Positions 1 to 62,510 of a stretch of DNA of 64,000 nucleotides are shown piece by piece. The DNA is taken from assembly GCA_964016885.1 (NCBI GenBank), contig OZ024754.1, positions 14,074,001 through 14,138,000 of the forward strand, given 5' to 3'. This DNA is from Eledone cirrhosa. Taxonomy: Eukaryota. Each line of letters opens with the position of its first letter. Position 1 is the first letter of the stretch. The notes under the pieces were generated by a model. It was not told the origin of the DNA. It saw nothing but the letters and a program-made list of their open reading frames with translations, and did not search any database. The position numbers were made by a program, and so were the translations under genes.

Positions 1-835
1 GGTAGGTAGGTATGTAGGTAGGTAGGTAGGTAGCTAGGTAGGTAGGTAGGTAGGTAGATAGGTAGGTGGGTAGGTAGGTAGGTAGGTAGGTAGGTAGGTA
101 GGTGGGTAGGTAGGTAGGTAGGTAGGTAGGTAGGTAGGTGGGTAGGTAGGTAGGTAGGTAGGTAGGTAGGTAGGTAGGTAGGTAGGTGGGTAGGTAGGTA
201 GGTAGGTAGGTAGGTAGGTAGGTAGGTAGGTGGTAGGTAAGTAGGTAGGTAGGTGGGTAGGTAGGTAGGTAAGTAGATAGGTAATTGGGTAGGTAGGTAG
301 GTAGGTAGGTAGGTAGGTGGGTAGGTAGGTAGCTAGGGAGGTAGGGAGGTAGGTAGGTAAGTAGATAGGTAGGTGGGTAGGTAGGTAGGTAGGGAGGTAA
401 ATAGGTAGGTAGGTAGGTAGGTAAGTAGGTAGGTACGTGGGTAGGTAGGTAGGTAGGTAGGTAGGTTGGTAGGTAGGTAAGTAGATAGGTAGGTGGGTAG
501 GTAGGTAGGTAGGTAGGTAGGTAGGTAGGTAGGTAGGTAGGTAGGTAGGTAGGTAAGTAGATAGGTAGGTGGGTAGGTAGGGAGGTAGGGAGGTAGGTAG
601 GTAGGTAGGTAGGTAAGTAGATAGGTAGGTGGGTAGGTAGGTAGGTAGGTAGGTTGGTAGGTAGGTAAGTAGATAGGTAGGTGGGTAGGTAGGTGGGTAG
701 GTAGTTAGGTAGGTAGGTAGGTAGGTAGGTAAGTAGGTAGGTAGGTGGGTAGGTAGGTAGGGAGGTAGGTAGGTAGGTAAGTAGATAGGTAAGTAGGTAG
801 GTAGGTTTGTAGGTAGGTAGGTAGGTAAGTAGATA
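1..835. repeat. Variant (GGTA)n tetranucleotide array, continues off the left edge
   Basis: GGTA units with GATA/GGTG/AGTA/GGGA variants; near-identical to 7861-8691. Confidence 0.97.
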
Positions 836-1099
836 TATTTCTTTTATTTGCCACTAGGGCATCAAAAGTGGGACAAGTACAAAGGGGGGAGTTTACACAA
901 AAAGGCGTCCTCAATAAGGAGGAGGCAATAACAAAATATAAAAATAAAATAAGATATAACAAAAAATAACATTTTTAACAAAATCCTCAATAGAGAGGAG
1001 GCGCCTTGGGGGGTCGCACACACCCCCGAAAAAAGTGTGCAACCCTTCTCCTCAGGAGCACAGAGAAGGGGTGCTCCCTTGGTCTTTCATCTTCCTCAC

Positions 1100-4000
1100 C
1101 TATAGTCTGATGTAGAGTGAAGGCCCATTCACACGGGCCATTCTCGCCACTTTCACCCATCTTTCATAGAAACGGCTGGGGTGCAGCACCTCTCTCTCCA
1201 TCCTGATCCTTCTTCCGAAATGATATCGGAAGAAACGGACCAGTTGTTGGCCAGAGAGAAAGGTGCCCGACCTCAGTCCTTTCAGACGCGTCCACCATAC
1301 AACCTCTTTCGCCATGGCTATTACGCACAGAAACACCGCCTCTGCTTCATCTTTGAAGGGGGGAGGCGGCTTGATCATTACAATAGACTCGGTGGTCAAC
1401 CGGATCGGTCCCACCCTTGACAGCAGTTGTTCGACATAGCCCCACAGATCGGCTACGCCCGAGCAGTGTACTAATGCGTGTGCAACGGTTTCCTCGTCGC
1501 ACACGCATCTGGGACAGATCTTTTTGGCGGGGTCCCTACCCGGGCGCCCGTGTCTGTAGAGCCTTTCTCGAACGGGTAAAGCCCCTCGGTAGCACTGCCA
1601 GGCCAGGGACTTCTGGAAGTTGTCCATAGGTCCCGGGCTGAATGTCCTACCGAAAAGGCTGGCCAGTTCGTCCTCCTCCATGTCTAGGGCTTCTCCGAGG
1701 GCGTCGTCGCACCTGCTGCGTACCAGCCCTCTATAGAATGTTGCGGTGGAGTCTCCACTGATAACCGGATCCGCCTGCCAGAGGGCGGTGAGCGCCTGGG
1801 CACACTCAGTGTGCCAGGCGCCCAGTTTTCTCGGTCTTTGCTTGACCCAGGATTGCAGCTCGGTGAGTGAGACGAGTCTGGGAAAGGTTCGTCTCACAAA
1901 CGAGGCCCACACCGGTTGTCCGGTGAGGAATACGTAGAGGTGCCGTAGCCTTAATGCGTGTTTACGCATCATTAGCCACGGCATCCCCAGCCCTCCTTTC
2001 GAAGGGTGTTGACAGCAGATGGATCTCCTCACCATAGGAGCCCGCCTCTTCCAAAGGAATTGGAAGAGCGCGCGCTCCATCTTGGTGAGGGTTTCCCTTG
2101 GGCAGGGCACTACGGTCAGGCGGTAGTAGATGACGGACGCTATGTGGGTGTTCGCCACCTCCGCCCGACCTTTCAGGGATAGTTTGCAACTGGCCCACTT
2201 CTGGGTCAGTGCAAACACTCTGTTCGTAACCTCCGCCCAGTTTTTCTCCACCTGGAGGTCCGGTCCGAACCAGACCCCGAGCAACTTCACCGGGCCCTCC
2301 GTCCAGCGTCCGACGACGCTATCGGAGGGCATCGGTCTGCCCCTCCACGTGCCGAGTTGCAAACCGATCGACTTGTCCCGGTTCAGCTTAGCCCCTGTGA
2401 ACTTTTCGTACTCCTCCAGTAAGGTGCCGACCGCCTCGATTTCGGAGGCCGTCGACACCATTACTGTCACGTCATCGGCGTAGGCCGACACCGCTTTCCG
2501 CAATCCCGGTTCCAAAGGGATGCCCTGCAACAACTCCAACTTCCGCAGTAGTGGCTCGAGAGTCAATACATACAGAAGGGAGGAGAGAGGGCACCCTTGT
2601 CGGATGGACCGCGCGATTTTGAACGGCTCCGAGAGGTAGCCGTTCACCTTGACCCTAGAGCAGATGCGGCTGCTGTGCATAGCAGTGATCCAGCCCCTGA
2701 AAACGGCTCCGAAGCCTGCCGCCGCTAGCACCGCATCCAGGTAACCATGGTCGACCCTATCGAACGCCTTAGATTGATCCAAGTTGATCAGAGCCCCACC
2801 AAAGCCGGGTTCGTTCCCAACCCTCTCTATGATGTATCGCATGAGGTGGAGGTTGTCATGGATGGACCTGGACGGGATAGCGCATGTCTGCGCATCTCCC
2901 ACCAGGTTGCCCACGACAAGCGCCAACCTCTTTGCTAGCACCTTGGCCAAAATCTGTAACTCTGTATTTAGCAGTGTTATGGGCCTGAAGTTACTTATTT
3001 CGTCCCCCTTGTTCTCGTCCTTCCTCACTAGCGTGACTACGCCCTTGGTCACAGTACAGGGAATTCTCCCGTTCTGTTGCCAGTTGCAGTAGACCGCCTC
3101 GAGGAGATCGGGGAACAAGTCCGGCATAGCTAGATATAATTCGTAAGGAAGACCATCGAGACCCGGGGATTTGCGTTTGCCGCATTGGCTCAGCACGTCC
3201 TCTATCTCAGCGGCCGAAATCGGCTCCTCGCAGGACTTCGCCTCCCTGTCCGAGAGGCGCGGCAGGCCGTCGAGGTATGGACCGAAGTCCACGTTCCCAA
3301 CCGGCTCCCCGCCCCTCCCGAACAGTCGGGCAAAGTGCCTTTGAAAGGCCTCACACATCTGCTTAGGCTCAAGAATCGCCCGTCCATCCAGGTCTCGCAA
3401 AGACCGGATGGTGGATTTAGTTCCACTGTTGGCCTCTGTCACGCGGGCCCAGCTAACAGCTTTGGTCCCCTCGTTCCCTAGAGCACGTATTTTACTTCGG
3501 ACAACGCAGCCTTCGTGCTTCGCGTCGAAAAACTGGCTCAAAGCCGTTCTCGACGCTAGCACTCTGGCCACGTCGCCGCTTCTAATTGCCTCTTCTACTC
3601 TATCTATTAGCTCCCTTTCCTTCCTATTCCTATCCGCAGCTAGAACCTTACTAAATTCTATCGAGACTACTCTAACCTCTCTCTTTAGAGATACCCACCA
3701 CCTGCTGTTGACGATCGCTCCAGTCAACCGTTCCTTAACTAACGTACTAATCCGATTCCTGTAGGCTCTACTTGCCGGCAAGGACAAGTTGAGCTTCCAG
3801 TAACCGGGGCCCTGTCTATGAGTTCTGTCAAGGTTGACCATGCAGGTCACTAATTTGTGGTCTGAATAGCCAACAATGCGCATTTTTGGACAACTTAAAA
3901 AGTCCTTATCCTTAATTCTAACTAAGAACCTATCTAGGTACGACCTAGATGATCCGCTACGATTTGCCCAAGTCCAGGTTGGCGCAGTCGGAAAATCTAG

Positions 4001-4537
4001 TCGATATCTATCGGCCAGGTCAAATCGACCGATTAACCCTTTGAGGCTATTACACCCCTCTCTATCGGGGCAGGCCCCTACGTAGTCCCAGCGTGCATCT
4101 AGGATACCATTCCAGTCCCCCACTAATAGCAAGGAGCGGGACGTCCCTAGAAAAGTCTCCAGACGATGGAAGAAGTCCGGCCGCATTGACCCGAAAGGGC
4201 CGTAGGCGGCTACCAACCTAAACGCTCCGCCTTTACCACTGCCAAGGTCCAGAACCACTAGTCGACCCTCCGGGTCCAAATGTACCATCTGTGTTGCGAG
4301 ACCCAGATGTTTTTGCAGCAGAACGACAACTCCACCCCCACCTCCAGGCTGACAGAGAGATGCGTGCATCTCAAAGTCATCAAAGGTGGGGGCCAGCTGT
4401 CGCACGTTGCTGATCCGGGCCTCGCAAATAACCATCACATCTATACGTTGTGACCTGAGGTCATTTAGAAGCATTGCTTGCTTCCAAGTTGAGCCCAGGC
4501 CACGCGCATTTAAACAGCCTACTCTTAGCATAGCCAT
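1100..4537 (-). CDS. Tx1-type ORF2: AP endonuclease + reverse transcriptase + C-terminal CCHC zinc finger (~1145 aa from MAMLRVGCLN)
   Basis: APE motifs LNARGL, GDWN, YLDRF, SDH; GPGYWKLN linker; RT motifs KSPGLDG, NFRPITLLN, DQSKAFDRV, RQGCPLS, AYADD; CPRC-x8-H-x4-C; uninterrupted frame. Confidence 0.96.
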   Translation of the reverse strand: MAMLRVGCLNARGLGSTWKQAMLLNDLRSQRIDVMVICEARISNVRQLAPTFDDFEMHASLCQPGGGGGVVVLLQKHLGLATQMVHLDPEGRLVVLDLGSGKGGAFRLVAAYGPFGSMRPDFFHRLETFLGTSRSLLLVGDWNGILDARWDYVGACPDREGCNSLKGLIGRFDLADRYRLDFPTAPTWTWANRSGSSRSYLDRFLVRIKDKDFLSCPKMRIVGYSDHKLVTCMVNLDRTHRQGPGYWKLNLSLPASRAYRNRISTLVKERLTGAIVNSRWWVSLKREVRVVSIEFSKVLAADRNRKERELIDRVEEAIRSGDVARVLASRTALSQFFDAKHEGCVVRSKIRALGNEGTKAVSWARVTEANSGTKSTIRSLRDLDGRAILEPKQMCEAFQRHFARLFGRGGEPVGNVDFGPYLDGLPRLSDREAKSCEEPISAAEIEDVLSQCGKRKSPGLDGLPYELYLAMPDLFPDLLEAVYCNWQQNGRIPCTVTKGVVTLVRKDENKGDEISNFRPITLLNTELQILAKVLAKRLALVVGNLVGDAQTCAIPSRSIHDNLHLMRYIIERVGNEPGFGGALINLDQSKAFDRVDHGYLDAVLAAAGFGAVFRGWITAMHSSRICSRVKVNGYLSEPFKIARSIRQGCPLSSLLYVLTLEPLLRKLELLQGIPLEPGLRKAVSAYADDVTVMVSTASEIEAVGTLLEEYEKFTGAKLNRDKSIGLQLGTWRGRPMPSDSVVGRWTEGPVKLLGVWFGPDLQVEKNWAEVTNRVFALTQKWASCKLSLKGRAEVANTHIASVIYYRLTVVPCPRETLTKMERALFQFLWKRRAPMVRRSICCQHPSKGGLGMPWLMMRKHALRLRHLYVFLTGQPVWASFVRRTFPRLVSLTELQSWVKQRPRKLGAWHTECAQALTALWQADPVISGDSTATFYRGLVRSRCDDALGEALDMEEDELASLFGRTFSPGPMDNFQKSLAWQCYRGALPVRERLYRHGRPGRDPAKKICPRCVCDEETVAHALVHCSGVADLWGYVEQLLSRVGPIRLTTESIVMIKPPPPFKDEAEAVFLCVIAMAKEVVWWTRLKGLRSGTFLSGQQLVRFFRYHFGRRIRMEREVLHPSRFYERWVKVARMARVNGPSLYIRL

Positions 4538-4561
4538 GTTGGTGGTGAAGAGAAAAGGCAC

Positions 4562-6338
4562 TTACCTCTCTGCGTCCCGGGTATCGGGCTGCACAATTTC
4601 CATTAGGGTGGGGGATGGGTTGTTGGGTGGGGTGGTGGTTTGTGGAAGTGTGGGGGCATCAGTGTGTTGTGTGGTTGGGGAGCTTGGAGTTGTGAGGGTG
4701 TTTGGGGAGGGGGTGGGATAGTTTTTTAGGAGGACTCGGTTAATGGGCCCGACGCAGGGGGGACCCACGTCCTCTTTAAAATTGTTTTTTAAAGTTTTAT
4801 AGGTGTCCTGTGGGGCCTTAATCATTTTGAGGTGGGGGAAATCCCCTGCCTGGGTGAAGTTAGGCCCTTGTGTTTTTATTAGATTGTTGTTGTACACAAT
4901 GTTTAACAGTTTTTTGTTTCTTGTATTTATGTATGTGTATGCATGTTTTTGTTTTTGTGTGGTGTTTTTTGTTTGCTGTTGTGAGCTCTTTTGTGTCAGT
5001 GTTATGTTTTGGGGAGGGGTTTTTTTCATTTGTGTGTCTGAGGTGTGTTTTCTTTTTTTTTCTTTTGATTGTGTGGAAGTGCTCCTCCTCGTCTGACGAC
5101 GAACTAGGGTCATCTTCCGCGTTGGAGGGGAGGGGTATATTTTCGGGTTGTGTTTGCGGTACGGGTGTTTTGGAAATTGTTTTTGTTTTTTGAGTGGAGG
5201 GGATGGGTTGGACATTGTTTTGTTTTGGTTTGAGCTGTGGTGGTTGTTTTTGTAGTGGTTGTTGTGGTGATTGTGTTGGTTGTGCAGTTGTTGGTGGTGT
5301 AGGCAGGATTGGGGTTTTCTTATTAAGTTGGGGACAGACAGCCCTCAGGTGACCTCTGGTTCCGCAGAGGTAACACGAGGGCCGTCTACCCTCAACGGTA
5401 ATGTTGATGAAGGTTAGATCATCCAGTATGACGCGTTCAGGGATCTGGGCGATCCTTTCGGGCCTCATTTGAACTACAAGTTCGAGGCTCGTTCCACTGA
5501 ACGCGTCACCCGATGCCTTTCCCATGGACACCAGCATGTCATCCTCCAGGTCCAGAAAACCTGTCAAAACCCACCATATGTCCATAATCGGCAGGATGGT
5601 GTGGATTTTTATTTTTTGTGTTCTTCTACCCATGTACGTAGGGTAGAAGGTGTATGCGGTGGATGTGATTGGTTTGATGGACAGTTTCACTGCTGTGTCC
5701 CTGTCCTTCATGAGAATGGATAGACTCCCGTAGAGTCTATCCTTCTGAATGAAGGTGATGTCCTTCATGACGTCTTTTAAAACCAGCTCTATCTCGCTCT
5801 GTGATGGTTGAGCTGGTTTTTTACTTTTGTTCGAGATTGTCCTAAACATGACCGTGTTTAGGAGTCTCTGGCTTTTTAGTTCCGGGGGGGAATGGATTGT
5901 GAATGAACCATTTTCCCCGTACACTATATATTTTTTCGCATCCGCCAGTAGCTCCTTCGCTTTTGTTATATCTACTGGCAGATAGTCGAGGGTTTTCCTT
6001 GTCGTCTCGGCGAAGGAGAAATTTTGTTTGTTTGTGTTGTTGTTGTCGTTGGTGGTGTTGTTGTTATCATTGTTGTTGTTGTCACCGTTATTGGTCTTGT
6101 TGTTGTTATTGTTATTGTTATTGGTGTTGTTTTCTACCGTCGCATTGTTGTTGTTGTTGCTGTTGGTTCTTTGGGTTGTTGCCATGGTAACGTCAAGTTG
6201 TCGGTTAACAGGTGGAGAGAATTCTTCCTCTGGCTGACCTATCTTCTTGACCTCTGCTACTGTGACAGTGGCAGGGGGAAGCTGTAAGTTCATCTTCCCC
6301 CTTCCTCCTTCGAATCTTGGTGAAGAAGCTTCGGCCAT
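4562..6338 (-). CDS. Tx1-type ORF1 (gag-like, CCHC zinc knuckle), probably ~590 aa with one frameshift near 4940-5060
   Basis: 492-aa ORF with poly-Asn tract and CYLCGTRGHLRAVC knuckle; overlapping 217-aa ORF in the +1 frame ends with TAA at 4562, 24 nt before the ORF2 ATG. Confidence 0.8.
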
Positions 6339-6545
6339 TTAAAAAAATATTGACTTTTCAACAAGAAAAAACTTTTTTTAACTATTTCGCCCAAAGGCGC
6401 AGAATATTTTGAGAGACTGACCAGATCAAAGTTTGACCTGGCAGTCCCTCTACAAAATGGTACAAAATTTAAAGTTATCAGACAAGAATTTCTATAGAAA
6501 TTTAAACAGAACTTACTCAGCAAGTTATACGCGTGTGTCCATCCC

Positions 6546-8691
6546 AGATAGATAATAGATAGATAGATAAGTAGGTAGGTAGGTGGGTAGGTAGGTAGGT
6601 AGGTAGGTAGGGAGGGAGGTAGGTAGGTAAGTAGGTAGGTAGGTGGGTAGGTAGGTAGATAGGTAGGGAGGTAGGTAGGTAGGTAGGTAGGGAGGGAGGT
6701 AGGTAGGTAAGTAGGTAGGTAGATGGTAGGTAAGTAGGTAGGTAGGTGGGTAGGTAGGTAGGTAGGTAGGTAGGTAGCAGGGTAGGTAGGTAGGTAGGTA
6801 GGTAGGGAGGTAGGTAGGTAGGTAGGTAGGTAAGTAGGTAGGTAGGTGGGTAGGTAGGTAGGTAGGTAGGGAGGTAGGTAGGTAGGTGGGTAGGTAGGTA
6901 GGGAGATAGGTAGGTAGGTGGGTAGGTAGGGAGGTAGGTAGGTAGGTAGGTAGGTAGGTAGGTAGGTAAGTAGGTAGGTAGGTGGTAGGTAGGGAGGTAG
7001 GTAGGTGGGTAGGTAGGGAGGTAGGTAGGTAGGTAGGTAGGTATGTAGGTAGGTAGGTAGGTAGCTAGGTAGGTAGGTAGGTAGGTAGATAGGTAGGTGG
7101 GTAGGTAGGTAGGTAGGTAGGTAGGTAGGTAGGTAGGTAGGTGGGTAGGTAGGTAGGTAGGTAGGTAGGTGGGTAGGTAGGTAGGTAGGTAGGTAGGTAG
7201 GTAGGTAGGTGGTAGGTAAGTAGGTAGGTAGGTGGGTAGGTAGGTAGGTAGGTAGGGAGGTAGGTAGGTAGGTGGGTAGGTAGGTAGGGAGATAGGTAGG
7301 TAGGTGGGTAGGTAGGGAGGTAGGTAGGTAGGTAGGTAGGTAGGTAGGTAGGTAGGTAAGTAGGTAGGTAGGTGGTAGGTAGGGAGGTAGGTAGGTGGGT
7401 AGGTAGGGAGGTAGGTAGGTAGGTAGGTAGGTAGGTAGGTATGTAGGTAGGTAGGTAGGTAGGTAGGTAGGTAGATAGGTAGGTGGGTAGGTAGGTAGGT
7501 AGGTAGGTAGGTAGGTAGGTGGGTAGGTAGGTAGGTAGGTAGGTAGGTAGGTAGGTGGGTAGGTAGGTAGGTAGGTAGGTAGGTAGGTAGGTAGGTAGGT
7601 AGGTGGGTAGGTAGGTAGGTAGGTAGGTAGGTAGGTAGGTGGTAGGTAAGTAGGTAGGTAGGTGGGTAGGTAGGTAGGTAAGTAGATAGGTAATTGGGTA
7701 GGTAGGTAGGTAGGTAGGTAGGTAGGTGGGTAGGTAGGTAGCTAGGGAGGTAGGGAGGTAGGTAGGTAAGTAGATAGGTAGGTGGGTAGGTAGGTAGGTA
7801 GGGAGGTAAATAGGTAGGTAGGTAGGTAGGTAAGTAGGTAGGTACGTGGGTAGGTAGGTAGGTAGGTAGGTATGTAGGTAGGTAGGTAGGTAGCTAGGTA
7901 GGTAGGTAGGTAGGTAGATAGGTAGGTGGGTAGGTAGGTAGGTAGGTAGGTAGGTAGGTAGGTGGGTAGGTAGGTAGGTAGGTAGGTAGGTAGGTAGGTG
8001 GGTAGGTAGGTAGGTAGGTAGGTAGGTAGGTAGGTAGGTAGGTAGGTAGGTGGGTAGGTAGGTAGGTAGGTAGGTAGGTAGGTAGGTAGGTGGTAGGTAA
8101 GTAGGTAGGTAGGTGGGTAGGTAGGTAGGTAAGTAGATAGGTAATTGGGTAGGTAGGTAGGTAGGTAGGTAGGTAGGTGGGTAGGTAGGTAGCTAGGGAG
8201 GTAGGGAGGTAGGTAGGTAAGTAGATAGGTAGGTGGGTAGGTAGGTAGGTAGGGAGGTAAATAGGTAGGTAGGTAGGTAGGTAAGTAGGTAGGTACGTGG
8301 GTAGGTAGGTAGGTAGGTAGGTAGGTTGGTAGGTAGGTAAGTAGATAGGTAGGTGGGTAGGTAGGTAGGTAGGTAGGTAGGTAGGTAGGTAGGTAGGTAG
8401 GTAGGTAAGTAGATAGGTAGGTGGGTAGGTAGGGAGGTAGGGAGGTAGGTAGGTAGGTAGGTAGGTAAGTAGATAGGTAGGTGGGTAGGTAGGTAGGTAG
8501 GTAGGTTGGTAGGTAGGTAAGTAGATAGGTAGGTGGGTAGGTAGGTGGGTAGGTAGTTAGGTAGGTAGGTAGGTAGGTAGGTAGGTAAGTAGGTAGGTAG
8601 GTGGGTAGGTAGGTAGGGAGGTAGGTAGGTAGGTAAGTAGATAGGTAAGTAGGTAGGTAGGTTTGTAGGTAGGTAGGTAGGTAAGTAGATA
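6546..8691. repeat. (GATA)n patch (6546-6570) followed by 2.1-kb variant (GGTA)n array with internal higher-order duplications
   Basis: Landmark variants recur, e.g. gtaattgggt at ~7690 and 8141, aggtacgtgg at ~7840 and 8291. Confidence 0.97.
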
Positions 8692-9481
8692 TATTTCTTT
8701 TATTTGCCACTAGGGCATCAAAAGTGGGACAAGTACAAAGGGGGGAGTTTACACAAAAAGGCGTCCTCAATAAGGAGAAGGCAATAACAAAATATAAAAA
8801 TAAAATAAGATATAACAAAAAATAAAATTTTTAACAAAATCCTCAATAGAGAGGAGGCGCCTTGGGGGGTCGCACACACCCCCGAAAAAAGTGTGCAACC
8901 CTTCTCCTCAGGAGCACAGAGAAGGGGTGCTCCCTTGGTCTTTCATCTTCCTCACCTATAGTCTGATGTAGAGTGAAGGCCCATTCACACGGGCCATTCT
9001 CGCCACTTTCACCCATCTTTCATAGAAACGGCTGGGGTGCAGCACCTCTCTCTCCATCCTGATCCTTCTTCCGAAATGATATCGGAAGAAACGGACCAGT
9101 TGTTGGCCAGAGAGAAAGGTGCCCGACCTCAGTCCTTTCAGACGCGTCCACCATACAACCTCTTTCGCCATGGCTATTACGCACAGAAACACCGCCTCTG
9201 CTTCATCTTTGAAGGGGGGAGGCGGCTTGATCATTACAATAGACTCGGTGGTCAACCGGATCGGTCCCACCCTTGACAGCAGTTGTTCGACATAGCCCCA
9301 CAGATCGGCTACGCCCGAGCAGTGTACTAATGCGTGTGCAACGGTTTCCTCGTCGCACACGCATCTGGGACAGATCTTTTTGGCGGGGTCCCTACCCGGG
9401 CGCCCGTGTCTGTAGAGCCTTTCTCGAACGGGTAAAGCCCCTCGGTAGCACTGCCAGGCCAGGGACTTCTGGAAGTTGTCC
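8692..9481 (-). mobile_element. 5'-truncated copy (790 bp) of the Tx1 element
   Basis: Matches 836-1625 with about 2 differences seen; 42-bp direct repeat 8650-8691 / 9487-9528 containing the rare gtttgt variant. Confidence 0.95.
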
Positions 9482-9840
9482 GTAGATAGGTAGGTAGGTT
9501 TGTAGGTAGGTAGGTAGGTAAGTAGATAGGTAGGTAGGTAAGTAGGTAGGTAGGTAGGTGGGTAGGTGGGTAGATAGGTAGGTAGGTAAGTAGGTAGGTA
9601 GATGGGTAGGTAGGTAGGTAGGTAGGTAGGAAGGGAGGGAGGTAGGTATGTAGATAGGTAGGTAGGTAGGCTGGTATGTAGATAGGTAGGTAAGTTGGTA
9701 GGTAAGTAGGTAGGTAGGTAGGTAACTATGTAGGTAGGTATGTTGGTAGGTAACTAGGTAGGGAGGTAGTTAGGTAAGTAGGTAGGTAGGTGGGTAGGTA
9801 GGTGGGTAGGTAGGTAACTAGGTAAGTAGGTAGGTAGATA
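9482..9840. repeat. Degenerating (GGTA)n array end
   Basis: Direct reading. Confidence 0.95.
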
Positions 9841-10116: not shown

Positions 10117-46882
<36,766 letters not shown>

Positions 46883-59207: not shown

Positions 59208-59229
59208 TACATATGTATATATATACATT

Positions 59230-59970
59230 CATACATACATATATAAAGACACATAGGCATACATACATATATAAAAACAGAAAACATACGTACATACATA
59301 CACACAATACATATATACAAACATACATACATACATACATATATACATACATATATAAAGACACACACAGACACTTAGGCATACATACATATATAAAAAC
59401 AGAAAACATACGTACATACATACACACAATACATATATACAAACATACATACATACATATATACATACATATATAAAGACACACACAGACACTTAGGCAT
59501 ACATACATATATAAAAACAGAAATCATACGTACATACATACACACAATACATATATACAAACATACATACATACATATATACATACATATATAAAGACAC
59601 ACACAGACACTTAGGCATACATACATATATAAAAACAGAAATCATACGTACATACATACACACAATACATATATACAAACATACATACATACATATATAC
59701 ATACATATATATAGACACACACAGACACTTAGGCATACATACATATATAAAAACAGAAAACATACGTACATACACACACACAATACATATATACATACAT
59801 ACATATATACATATATACATACATATATAAAGACACACACAGACACTTAGGCATACATACATATATAAAAACAGAAAACATACGTACATACACACACACA
59901 ATACATATATACATACATACATATATACATACATATATATAGACACACACAGACACTTAGACATACATAT
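59230..59970. repeat. ~118-bp CATA-rich tandem repeat; resumes at 60520-61010
   Basis: Recurring AAAAACAGAAAACATACG...GACACTTAGG. Confidence 0.9.
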
Positions 59971-61312
59971 GTAGCAGGAGTTGCCTCCCTTGTTGTGACA
60001 CTCACATCCCCAATAGATTAACGCTCTCTAGACAGGAAGTAGAACCCTTTCTGTAACTTCCGGTCAGAACCCTATAAAACTAATAACTGTTTCTACTTTT
60101 GGCACAAGCCCAGCAATTACCCAGTGCATTACTGGTACTTTATTTTATCGACCCCGTAAGGATGAAAGGCAAAGTTTAACCTCGGCGGGATTTGAACTCA
60201 GATCATACAGGGAGGTAACTCTATGCTTCAAAGCATGGCGTTCGACCCTCTACCGATACTGCCAATCCACCGCCTTTAAAACTAATAACGTTAAACTCCC
60301 TATCTCTCATTTGCCTTTCCGGCGCCTGGCCTTCGCCAGGCGTCTTCTGCCGGGCGCGTTCACCTGGCAACCAAAACGGTAACTAATAACTTTGCTTCAT
60401 TCTTTCATCTATTCATTGACATGTCAACTATACTGTTCTATATATCCACAAATTGTTAATTAAATATTATACACACAAATCACGTCTCATGTTATACTTA
60501 TACAACCCAGTATATTGTTATACATACATATATAAAAGCAGAAAACATACGTACATACATACACACAATACATACATATATACAAACATACATACATACA
60601 TATATACATATATAAAGACACTCACAGACACATAGGCATACATACATATATAAAAACAGAAAAGATACGTACATACATACACACAATACATACATATATA
60701 CATACATATATACATACATATATACATACATATATAAAGACACACACAGACATTTAGGCATACATACATATATAAAAACAGAAAACATACGTACATACAT
60801 ACACACAATACATACATATATACAAACATACATATATACATATATACATACATATATAAAGACACACATATACAAACATACATACATATATACATACATA
60901 CATATATAAAGGCACTCACAGACGCATAGGCATACATACATATATAAAGACACACACAGATACATAGACATACATAAATATATAAAAACAGAAAACATAC
61001 ATACATACATGCTAATTTATATACACTAGCAGAAAAACTGCCCTCGCAGGCGGTTTTCTGCTAGCATATGTAGTGTGCATATTGGTTTTATATGCAAATA
61101 TATATGCTTATAGATATGATACGTAAATTGAAAAGTAAATTGACAATATCTTCTTCTTTGCCCACTTATTTATGAGAATATCGTGTGTGTGTGTGGGGGG
61201 GGGGGGGGGGTCAGGCTACTGAATATCGAGACGTTTGGGGAAGTCAGGCTACTGACTGCGAGATTCTTATCTTCACTGACGGCTCGCCTAACAGAGGTAA
61301 CTGGTGAAGCTC

Positions 61313-62510
61313 GTGACAGTGTTAATGGAGTGTTGGCAGTGTTAATGTAGTGTTGGCAGTGTTAACGGAGGGGTGACAGTGTTAATGGAGTGTTGATGGA
61401 GTGGTGGCAGTGTTAATGGAGTGATGGCAGTGTTAACGGAGTGGTGGCAGTGTTAATGGAGTGGTGACTGTGTTAATGGAGTGGTGACTGTGTTAATGGA
61501 GTGTTTGCAGTGTTAATGGAGTGGTGGAAGTGTTAATGGAGTGGTGACTGTGTTAATGGAGTGTTAATGGAGTGGTGACTGTGTTAATGGAGTGGTGACT
61601 GCGTTAATAGAGTGTTTGCAGTGTTAATGGAGTGGTTACTGTGTTATTGGAGTGGTGACAGTGTTAATGGAGTGTTTGCAGTGTTAATGGAGTGGTGACA
61701 GTGTTAATGGAGTGATGACTGTGTTAATGGAGTGGTGACTGCGTTAATAGAGTGTTTGCAGTGTTAATGGAGTGGTTACTGTGTTATTGGAGTGGTGACA
61801 GTGTTAATGGAGTGTTTGCAGTGTTAATGGAGTGGTGACAGTGTTAATGAAGGGGTGACTGTGTTAATGGAGTGGTGACTGTGTTAATGGAGGAGTGACA
61901 GTGTTAATGAAGTGGAGACAGTGTTAATGGAAGGGTGACAGTGTTAATGGAGTGGTGACTGTGTTAATGGAGTGATGACTGTGTTAATGGAGTGTTGGCA
62001 GTGTTAATGGAGTGGTGACAGTGTTAATGGAGGGGTGACAGTGTTAATGGAGCGGTGGCTGTGTTAATGGAGGGGTGACTGTGTTAATGGAGGAGTGACA
62101 GTGTTAATGAAGTGGAGACAGTGTTAATGGAAGGGTGACAGTGTTAATGGAGTGGTGACTGTGTTAATGGAGTGATGACTGTGTTAATGGAGTGTTGGCA
62201 GTGTTAATGGAGTGGTGACAGTGTTAATGGAGGGGTGACAGTGTTAATGGAGCGGTGGCTGTGTTAATGGAGTGGTGACTGTGTTAATGGAGGAGTGACA
62301 GTGTTAATGAAGTGGAGACAGTGTTAATGGAAGGGTGACAGTGTTAATGGAGTGGTGACTGTGTTAATGGAGTGATGACTGTGTTAATGGAGTGTTGGCA
62401 GTGTTAATGGAGTGGTGACAGTGTTAATGGAGGGGTGACAGTGTTAATGGAGCGGTGGCTGTGTTAATGGAGGGGTGACTGTGTTAATGGAGTGGTGACT
62501 CTGTTAATGG
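61313..62510. repeat. 20-bp minisatellite (GTGTTAATGGAGTGGTGAC[A/T]) with higher-order repeats
   Basis: Direct reading. Confidence 0.96.

Follow-up and report, generated by a model that had tools for sequence, protein, structure and literature searches.

The window analysed here is a stretch of 64,000 nucleotides from Eledone cirrhosa (positions 14,074,001 to 14,138,000 of the forward strand of contig OZ024754.1, assembly GCA_964016885.1). Its left end carries, on the minus strand, a full-length copy of a long interspersed nuclear element (LINE), termed family A, which lies among GATA and GGTA repeats and encodes an endonuclease (EN) of the apurinic/apyrimidinic type (APE) and a reverse transcriptase (RT). 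Family A is a young L1-group APE-RT LINE, and the GATA repeat beside its copies is the target of insertion and not a tail of the element. Family A and its sister families are together called the clan.

The full-length element

The features of the full-length copy and its junctions are listed below (ORF, open reading frame; UTR, untranslated region; TSD, target-site duplication).

836-6548, minus strand: full-length family A LINE, 5.7 kb; the 5' end is ambiguous with the GATA flank at 6546-6549
1100-4537, minus strand: ORF2, open, 1145 amino acids, with APE endonuclease, RT and C-terminal zinc-binding motif
3800-4537, minus strand: APE endonuclease domain with the catalytic motifs LNARG, CE, YGP, GDWN, YLD and SDH, and with NRSGSSR, a short hairpin segment common to the clan
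2273-3004, minus strand: RT core, Pfam RVT_1 match (E 1e-25)
1442-1612, minus strand: zf-RVT-like zinc-binding region, a weak match (24.7 bits, below the Pfam cut-off of 27.5)
4562-6338, minus strand: ORF1 region, frameshifted near 5052; 492 amino acids are read to 4860, and a different frame contains the natural C-terminal part, down to 4562
5334-5375, minus strand: single zinc knuckle CX2CX4HX4C in ORF1 (P0002), read from the protein sequence
836-1099, minus strand: 3' UTR with a GCC-N5-GGC hairpin (850-860), AATAAA (843-848) and a fixed, poly(A)-free end
827-835, plus strand: target motif A-N-x-T-A-G-A-T-A at the 3' junction, on the predicted primer strand
6546-6569, plus strand: GATA patch at the 5' junction, without a short TSD

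ORF2 combines an N-terminal APE domain, an RT and a C-terminal zinc motif, ORF1 is separate, and copies show 5' truncation and TSDs, all of which are features of the L1 group. The nearest solved structure for ORF2 is human L1 ORF2p (168 bits), and the predicted endonuclease structure (pLDDT, the predicted local distance difference test, 91) has human L1 EN as its best match (template modelling score, TM, 0.83). The GC content of ORF2 is 55% and its observed/expected CpG ratio is 0.86, compared with 39% and 0.42 for the window. Of the first 90 copies listed on chromosome 1, 70 were read at both ends, and none of the 70 has a T run at the junction that would represent a poly(A) tail. The first-pass annotation of the window, which described an uninterrupted, GC- and CpG-rich ORF2 without poly(A), was correct in these respects.

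The same annotation called the element young and intact. Youth is borne out by the sampled copies, which are mostly 98-100% identical to the window copy (one subfamily is near 87%). ORF1 starts at 6338 and ends after 492 amino acids with an out-of-frame tail, and compared with copies L095 and L118, in which ORF1 has 592-595 amino acids, there is one surplus base in a T run near 5052. Because ORF1 leaves its frame there, the window copy is young but not fully intact. Copy L132 carries the identical frameshift state, and the frameshift may be a homopolymer assembly error. A Pfam search of ORF1 matched no family. An asparagine-rich (AAC)n tract in ORF1 (window 6030-6190) differs in length between copies in steps of three.

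Genome-wide 3' junctions

Exact 3' ends were counted across the 3.0-Gb assembly using a 28-base word that begins two bases inside the 3' end of family A. The count gave 1946 ends, some of them later duplicates, with AGATA-NN in front of 1652 (85%) and ATATA-NN in front of 239 (12%), jointly 1891 (97%). The background per site, taken from 20 random 10-kb stretches, is 0.224% for AGATA and 2.68% for ATATA, giving enrichments of about 380-fold and 4.6-fold, respectively, and a per-site ratio near 83. A Tx1 element is regarded as target-specific if one sequence type occupies more than 20% of its flanks (Kojima, 2015, in the part available), and AGATA alone occupies 85% of those of family A. The first-pass annotation had proposed a GATA-specific family, with a genome-wide survey of junctions as its check; the survey upholds the proposal and does not reflect a generic AT preference.

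Within the chromosome 1 sample, A at positions -9, -5, -3 and -1 and T at -2 are invariant in 70 of 70 copies, position -4 has G (56 copies) or T (14 copies), and position -7 is A in 68. The junction motif is A-N-A-T-A-(G/T)-A-T-A, and since it allows G or T, (TA)n serves as a second target at about 1/80 of the per-site rate. Pure 3' flanks are common, with three perfect GATA units in 37 copies and two or more units in 47. Near full-length copies number 14, and the others are truncated at the 5' end.

Of the best 150 genome matches to the endonuclease domain, 115 tie at the highest score, and an open frame of 1153 codons is present at 123; this points to very recent activity. The youth of the copies accords with the apparently functional ORF2 proposed at first pass and suggests that the encoded enzyme is active.

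GGTA, which had been named together with GATA as part of the targeted microsatellite, was rejected as a target of young copies: none of the 70 junctions reads AGGTA, and no more than 55 of 1946 ends follow a word other than AGATA or ATATA. The GATA part of that claim stands.

In a satellite at G000:C1:108.7-108.8 Mb (L129-L132), three copies (L130, L131 and L132) share one satellite-unit position. Two are duplicates, and as the third differs in length and end, the site was probably hit twice.

Target versus tail

In 45 of the 70 copies, the word GATAGATA is found no more than 50 bases from the 5' end, and among 30 full-length ends it adjoins the 5' end in most of the 29 that are readable. Exact TSDs of 11-21 bp that are not pure repeat were found at ten loci, for example CAGTAGACACATATATA and AATTGATAAATAGATAGATA; two of the ten duplicate one site and three lie between stacked copies. 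At these unique-sequence loci, no GATA units have been added between the TSD and the element. TSDs in unique sequence hold the motif once per side along with private variants (L072, L101, L115, L122, L124 and L130), and six of the 70 copies were scored as having no recognisable TSD. The orientation is fixed, with the GATA strand being antisense, the strand of the complementary DNA (cDNA).

Microsatellite-tailed elements are known among CR1 and RTE, and a 3' flank that is nearly always GATA, and often pure, is what a tail written by the element itself would also produce. This explanation is highly improbable and is largely refuted by the GATA at the 5' ends of truncated and full copies alike and by the unique-site TSDs with their single motif per side and private variants; the 12% of ends lacking any G also speak against it. 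Because GATA stands at the 5' ends and within unique-site TSDs as well, the repeat is the target.

Head-to-tail stacks parted only by a short GATA-ending duplication occur at L104, L082, L083 (G000:C1:42.26 Mb), L118/L119, L035, L045 and L047. Members of different families are stacked within one array at L363 and L365.

Elements beside microsatellite arrays

The relationship was also read in reverse, starting from the arrays. Array starts with five perfect units and four non-G bases in front number 17,217 genome-wide for (GATA)n, and (CATA)n array starts number 51,256, three times as many. A clan element lies within 700 bases of 25 of 40 (GATA)n arrays, these being the first distinct ones on C1 (one chromosome arm), and the orientation is identical in all 25 (antisense on the GATA strand). 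Beside (CATA)n arrays a clan element was found in 0 of 29 cases, and in the random control 5 of 140 pieces contain one, all belonging to one element. The rare (GGTA)n arrays have a clan member nearby in 10 of 24 cases; seven of the 60 control loci in the (CATA)n and (GGTA)n sets had been dropped as the same array. Three loci of the (GGTA)n set have AGATA junctions and two older copies have GATAGGTA; given the AGATA junctions, GGTA arrays look like degenerate GATA neighbourhoods.

These controls bear on the possibility that insertion is unspecific and that copies merely persist in harmless microsatellite DNA, of which this genome, rich in simple repeats, offers a great deal. Such survival is refuted by the 29 (CATA)n arrays without a clan element, commoner as this repeat is, and by the single-base register of the junctions. 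Fixed orientation, the concentration of 97% of ends in two words and the near identity of the copies (about 99%), which leaves little time for selection, count against it too, and its probability is close to negligible.

An older full-length clan element lies in a random control stretch (L164:1900-7660), at an ATATA junction and with a diverged direct repeat, about 70 bases long, on its two sides.

Sister families

The GATA habit is common to at least four families. Family B, whose ORF2 is 76-77% identical to that of family A, has 2080 exact ends, 1760 of them after AGATA-NN. Family C (ORF2 85% identical) has AGATA at all eight 3' ends seen, and a fourth family (96%) at two of three. The same target is therefore held down to 76% ORF2 identity, with EN identities of 73-89%. 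All these families have the endonuclease hairpin segment W-x-W-x-NRSG-x-SRSYLD, and a GCC-N5-GGC hairpin followed by AATAAA is present in five of five family ends compared.

Five family B copies (L180-L182, L185 and L188) sit at relaxed TAATATT or TTATATT junctions, three of them in one satellite. At L041 and L310, clan elements are joined to, or inserted in, a clan element on the opposite strand.

Proposed mechanism

Target-primed reverse transcription is the established mechanism for such elements. Following it, the endonuclease would cut the GATA-reading strand directly after A-N-A-T-A-(G/T)-A-T-A, and the strand reading AGATAGATA would act as the primer, its free 3' end starting the cDNA. 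A second cut on the other strand, 11-20 bases upstream, would yield the TSD. Since each TSD leaves GATA on both sides, insertion restores the target, and copies stack head to tail. Somewhat less firmly, the AATAAA that lies 7 bases from the element end would put RNA cleavage within the (UAUC)n that follows. That the end is fixed, that poly(A) is absent and that AATAAA stands so near the end together suggest that the RNA runs into this repeat. Read-through RNA with a few target-complementary bases might then pair with the primer and set the start point.

Pairing of RNA and target that fixes the start point has reportedly been described for SART1, as for R1Bm. For family A, it is probable that the enzyme recognises the motif with the help of RNA-primer pairing. 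The nine-base motif is similar in size to the roughly 10 bp recognised by the TRAS1 and Tx1L endonucleases (PMC1919474, in the part available), and accurate priming by R1Bm requires downstream target sequence (PMC7265360, likewise in part).

Several observations weigh against a strict, enzyme-directed GATA specificity. The 12% of ends at ATATA contain no G, two older copies end at GATAGGTA and a further exception occurs at L137, and family B tolerates TATT in five of 30 ends read. A short TSD is lacking at the full copy in the window. Because part of the 1946 ends were duplicated later (for example L130/L131), the counts are not all independent events, and the array pattern with four non-G bases in front may have favoured arrays touching an element among the 25 of 40. 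The junctions do not fix the position of the nick, and the last ATA could be RNA-templated. Every conserved base is on the primer side, a pattern compatible with RNA pairing no less than with enzyme recognition.

An endonuclease that is only loosely AT-specific would accommodate this last point, the choice of GATA then coming mostly from pairing of the read-through (UAUC)n with nicks that end in AGATA. In its favour, the bases after the cut vary (A, G or T), and poly(A) goes uncopied despite AATAAA, so priming must begin internally. The terminal two bases of the element also correlate with target class, ATATA being the site of 7 of 18 AG ends and 5 of 49 TA and TG ends (p 0.012). On a tree of 55 copies, however, target class is unclustered (11 changes, with a shuffled mean of 11, at low resolution), so TA-site copies do not descend from TA-site donors; a target class that is not passed on speaks against donors as the only determinant of the target. 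Surplus GATA units between element and TSD are lacking at unique sites, and in domain swaps between TRAS1 and SART1 it is the EN that determines the target (PMC1919474). A target set mainly by RNA pairing is consequently unlikely, and recognition by the endonuclease, assisted by such pairing, is preferred.

Placement and known systems

Among named proteins, the closest comes from Argonauta hians (67% over the RT), in line with an octopod host. The fish pol-like proteins BAC82605, BAC82609 and BAC82606, which we take to be the Kibi/Koshi series, score 335, 308 and 251 bits against ORF2, with identities of 33-34% in the RT and 23-24% in the EN, while human L1 scores 168 bits and plant L1 at most 142. 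Owing to this higher similarity to the fish proteins than to human L1, family A likely belongs to the Tx1 clade. An ORF1 with a CCHC zinc knuckle is a Tx1 feature, and one CX2CX4HX4C is present here. In a quick RT tree of 51 rows, the element falls in its own branch of 11 rows (100) together with the Argonauta protein; the presumed Kibi/Koshi branch (98) excludes it, and both are set apart from plant L1 (100). The Tx1-group label given at first pass is thus likely by similarity; the rows of the tree cover plant L1 and the animal elements with which family A groups, the three fish proteins among them, but not Tx1L, Keno or vertebrate L1. The repeats (TC)n, (TTC)n, (TTCC)n and (TTTC)n targeted by the Kibi/Koshi group are not those of family A.

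A metagenome search for relatives returned 80 loci, nearly all 23-35% identical and too distant and short for the target to be read. The ESM Atlas yielded generic APE-RT clusters only, contigs of four public runs (three other organisms) gave no junctions, and no RNA entry was listed as a holder of the sequence. Proteins in ENA about 40% identical to ORF2, which carry neither names nor flanking sequence, form clusters (P0005, P0013 and P0163) with hundreds of members and represent a relative at high copy number in another organism.

Human L1 resembles family A in ORF2 architecture and EN fold; it works with poly(A) and a loosely defined site, TTTT/AA, whereas family A has no poly(A), a fixed end, a nine-base motif and a purine-rich primer. 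Waldo, Mino, Dong and Togen belong to clades labelled R1, R4 and NeSL-related. The sources cited in the remainder of this section were available in part. Waldo ((ACAY)n), Mino ((AC)n) and Dong ((TAA)n) (PMC3812793) and Togen ((TG)n; PMC4640811) are microsatellite-targeting elements without long terminal repeats, from other clades, and none is listed there as GATA-specific; the present clan, for its part, avoids (CATA)n. Kibi ((TC)n) and Koshi ((TTC)n), from the Tx1 clade of teleost fish (Kojima and Fujiwara, 2004, via PMC4494074 and PMC3812793), are likewise APE-RT LINEs that insert into a microsatellite, but family A differs in its target ((GATA)n/(TA)n), in its thousands of copies in a molluscan genome and in not being their sister in the tree. 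Tx1 families of crocodilians that occupy (TTCC)n or (TTTC)n and group with Kibi and Koshi (PMC4494074) show the same preference for a tetranucleotide microsatellite within the Tx1 clade; their repeat is a different one, and family A is near-identical in sequence and 97% specific. The 80 L1-Tx1 families of Octopus vulgaris, 13 of them recently active with 421 insertions (PMC13282606), are probably the same kind of element, and the accessible text of that paper contains neither 'target' nor 'GATA' and describes no specificity. L1-Tx1 elements have expanded in coleoids, with no target stated in the part available (PMC8967140), and further context on the clade is given in PMC3747384 and PMC4746887.

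No GATA-specific retrotransposon was found in the literature searched, in agreement with the first-pass annotation, which did not recognise the specificity as described; Repbase, Dfam, most subscription papers and the supplement of PMC4494074 lie outside that search and may list one. Within that search the GATA target is new, and the microsatellite-targeting habit of Tx1 has been known since 2004. A broader reading is offered tentatively: the clan may be an undescribed octopod group of Tx1-like elements and the first (GATA)n-specific retrotransposons, holding its target through at least 24% ORF2 divergence, occupying most genomic (GATA)n, multiplying its target at every insertion, nicking the purine-rich strand and replacing poly(A) with read-through RNA. 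In its full breadth, this reading is plausible but falls somewhat short of probable.

The clan provides an apparently new, sharply defined target for APE endonucleases. Its thousands of junctions, more than 100 open ORF2 copies and sister enzymes with the same target at 73-89% EN identity form a natural set that is useful for asking what share the endonuclease and RNA-primer pairing each have in site choice. Frequently, a (GATA)n locus of this genome is also a retrotransposon junction, a fact relevant to microsatellite markers and to cephalopod repeat evolution.

Other copies and arrays in and around the window

1-835, plus strand: GGTA-rich array X, extending 1231 bases further left, outside the window
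6556-8691, plus strand: second GGTA-rich array (X'), nearly identical to some 1.7 kb of array X
8692-9481, minus strand: 790-base copy of family A, truncated at the 5' end and with 2 differences from the full one (99.6%), TSD GTAGATA
9482-9837, plus strand: GGTA-rich array right of the truncated copy
17505-17724, minus strand: 5'-truncated copy of greater age (88% identity), located at ATATA within a 27-bp satellite, with TSD TAATATATA
24962-25066, minus strand: short 3' fragment belonging to family B, with AGATA at its junction and a TSD of 14-15 bp in unique sequence, CTGTACAATAGATAG
L027:6344-8769: fifth copy, just left of the window, with junction TTGATAGATA

The first-pass annotation counted four insertions of one lineage in the window, all at or beside AGATA. 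The GTAGATA junctions ending at 835 and 8691 and the 5' GATA patch at 6546-6569 are present in the sequence, and AGATA is, as it stated, the minority word in the three GGTA arrays (9 against 138 AGGTA, 21 against 361 and 6 against 48). All four copies exist, but they are not all independent. The 835 bases left of 836 and the bases left of 8692 differ by two mismatches and two small indels, and in a comparison by variant units the duplication of the two left flanks totals about 1.7 kb, reaching into the neighbouring stretch; as these arrays are duplicated, both junctions count as one site. The copy at 17505 has the TSD given for it, in register at ATATA and not at AGATA. For the copy at 24963 the TSD in unique sequence was also correct, and the element proves to be of family B and not of the same family.

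The GGTA array of about 1.7 kb flanks the full copy on both sides (window 1-835 and 6556-8691, and L027:8770-10000), with an extra internal duplication; this is a tandem duplication or else a duplication of the target over a very long stretch. The full copy and the short copy at 8692 differ at 922 and 970. Because the short-copy variants are found in other genomic copies, the short copy was not simply excised from the long one. On the simplest reading, the full copy would have entered the regenerated target at the 3' junction of the short copy, and resolution of the event would have left a long duplication; alternatively, conversion may have accompanied a tandem duplication.

About 17 kb left of the window, an old fragment of the same lineage and strand has 71% identity (L028:6076-6784). 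Tandem arrays with periods of 13-124 lie at window 12829-14067, 26679-27253, 28381-29756, 44186-46615 and 59208-62510. The 23-bp array at 12829 has AGATA in every unit, yet carries no clan element, and the 98-bp unit at 26679 resembles a tandemly repeated piece of a short interspersed nuclear element.

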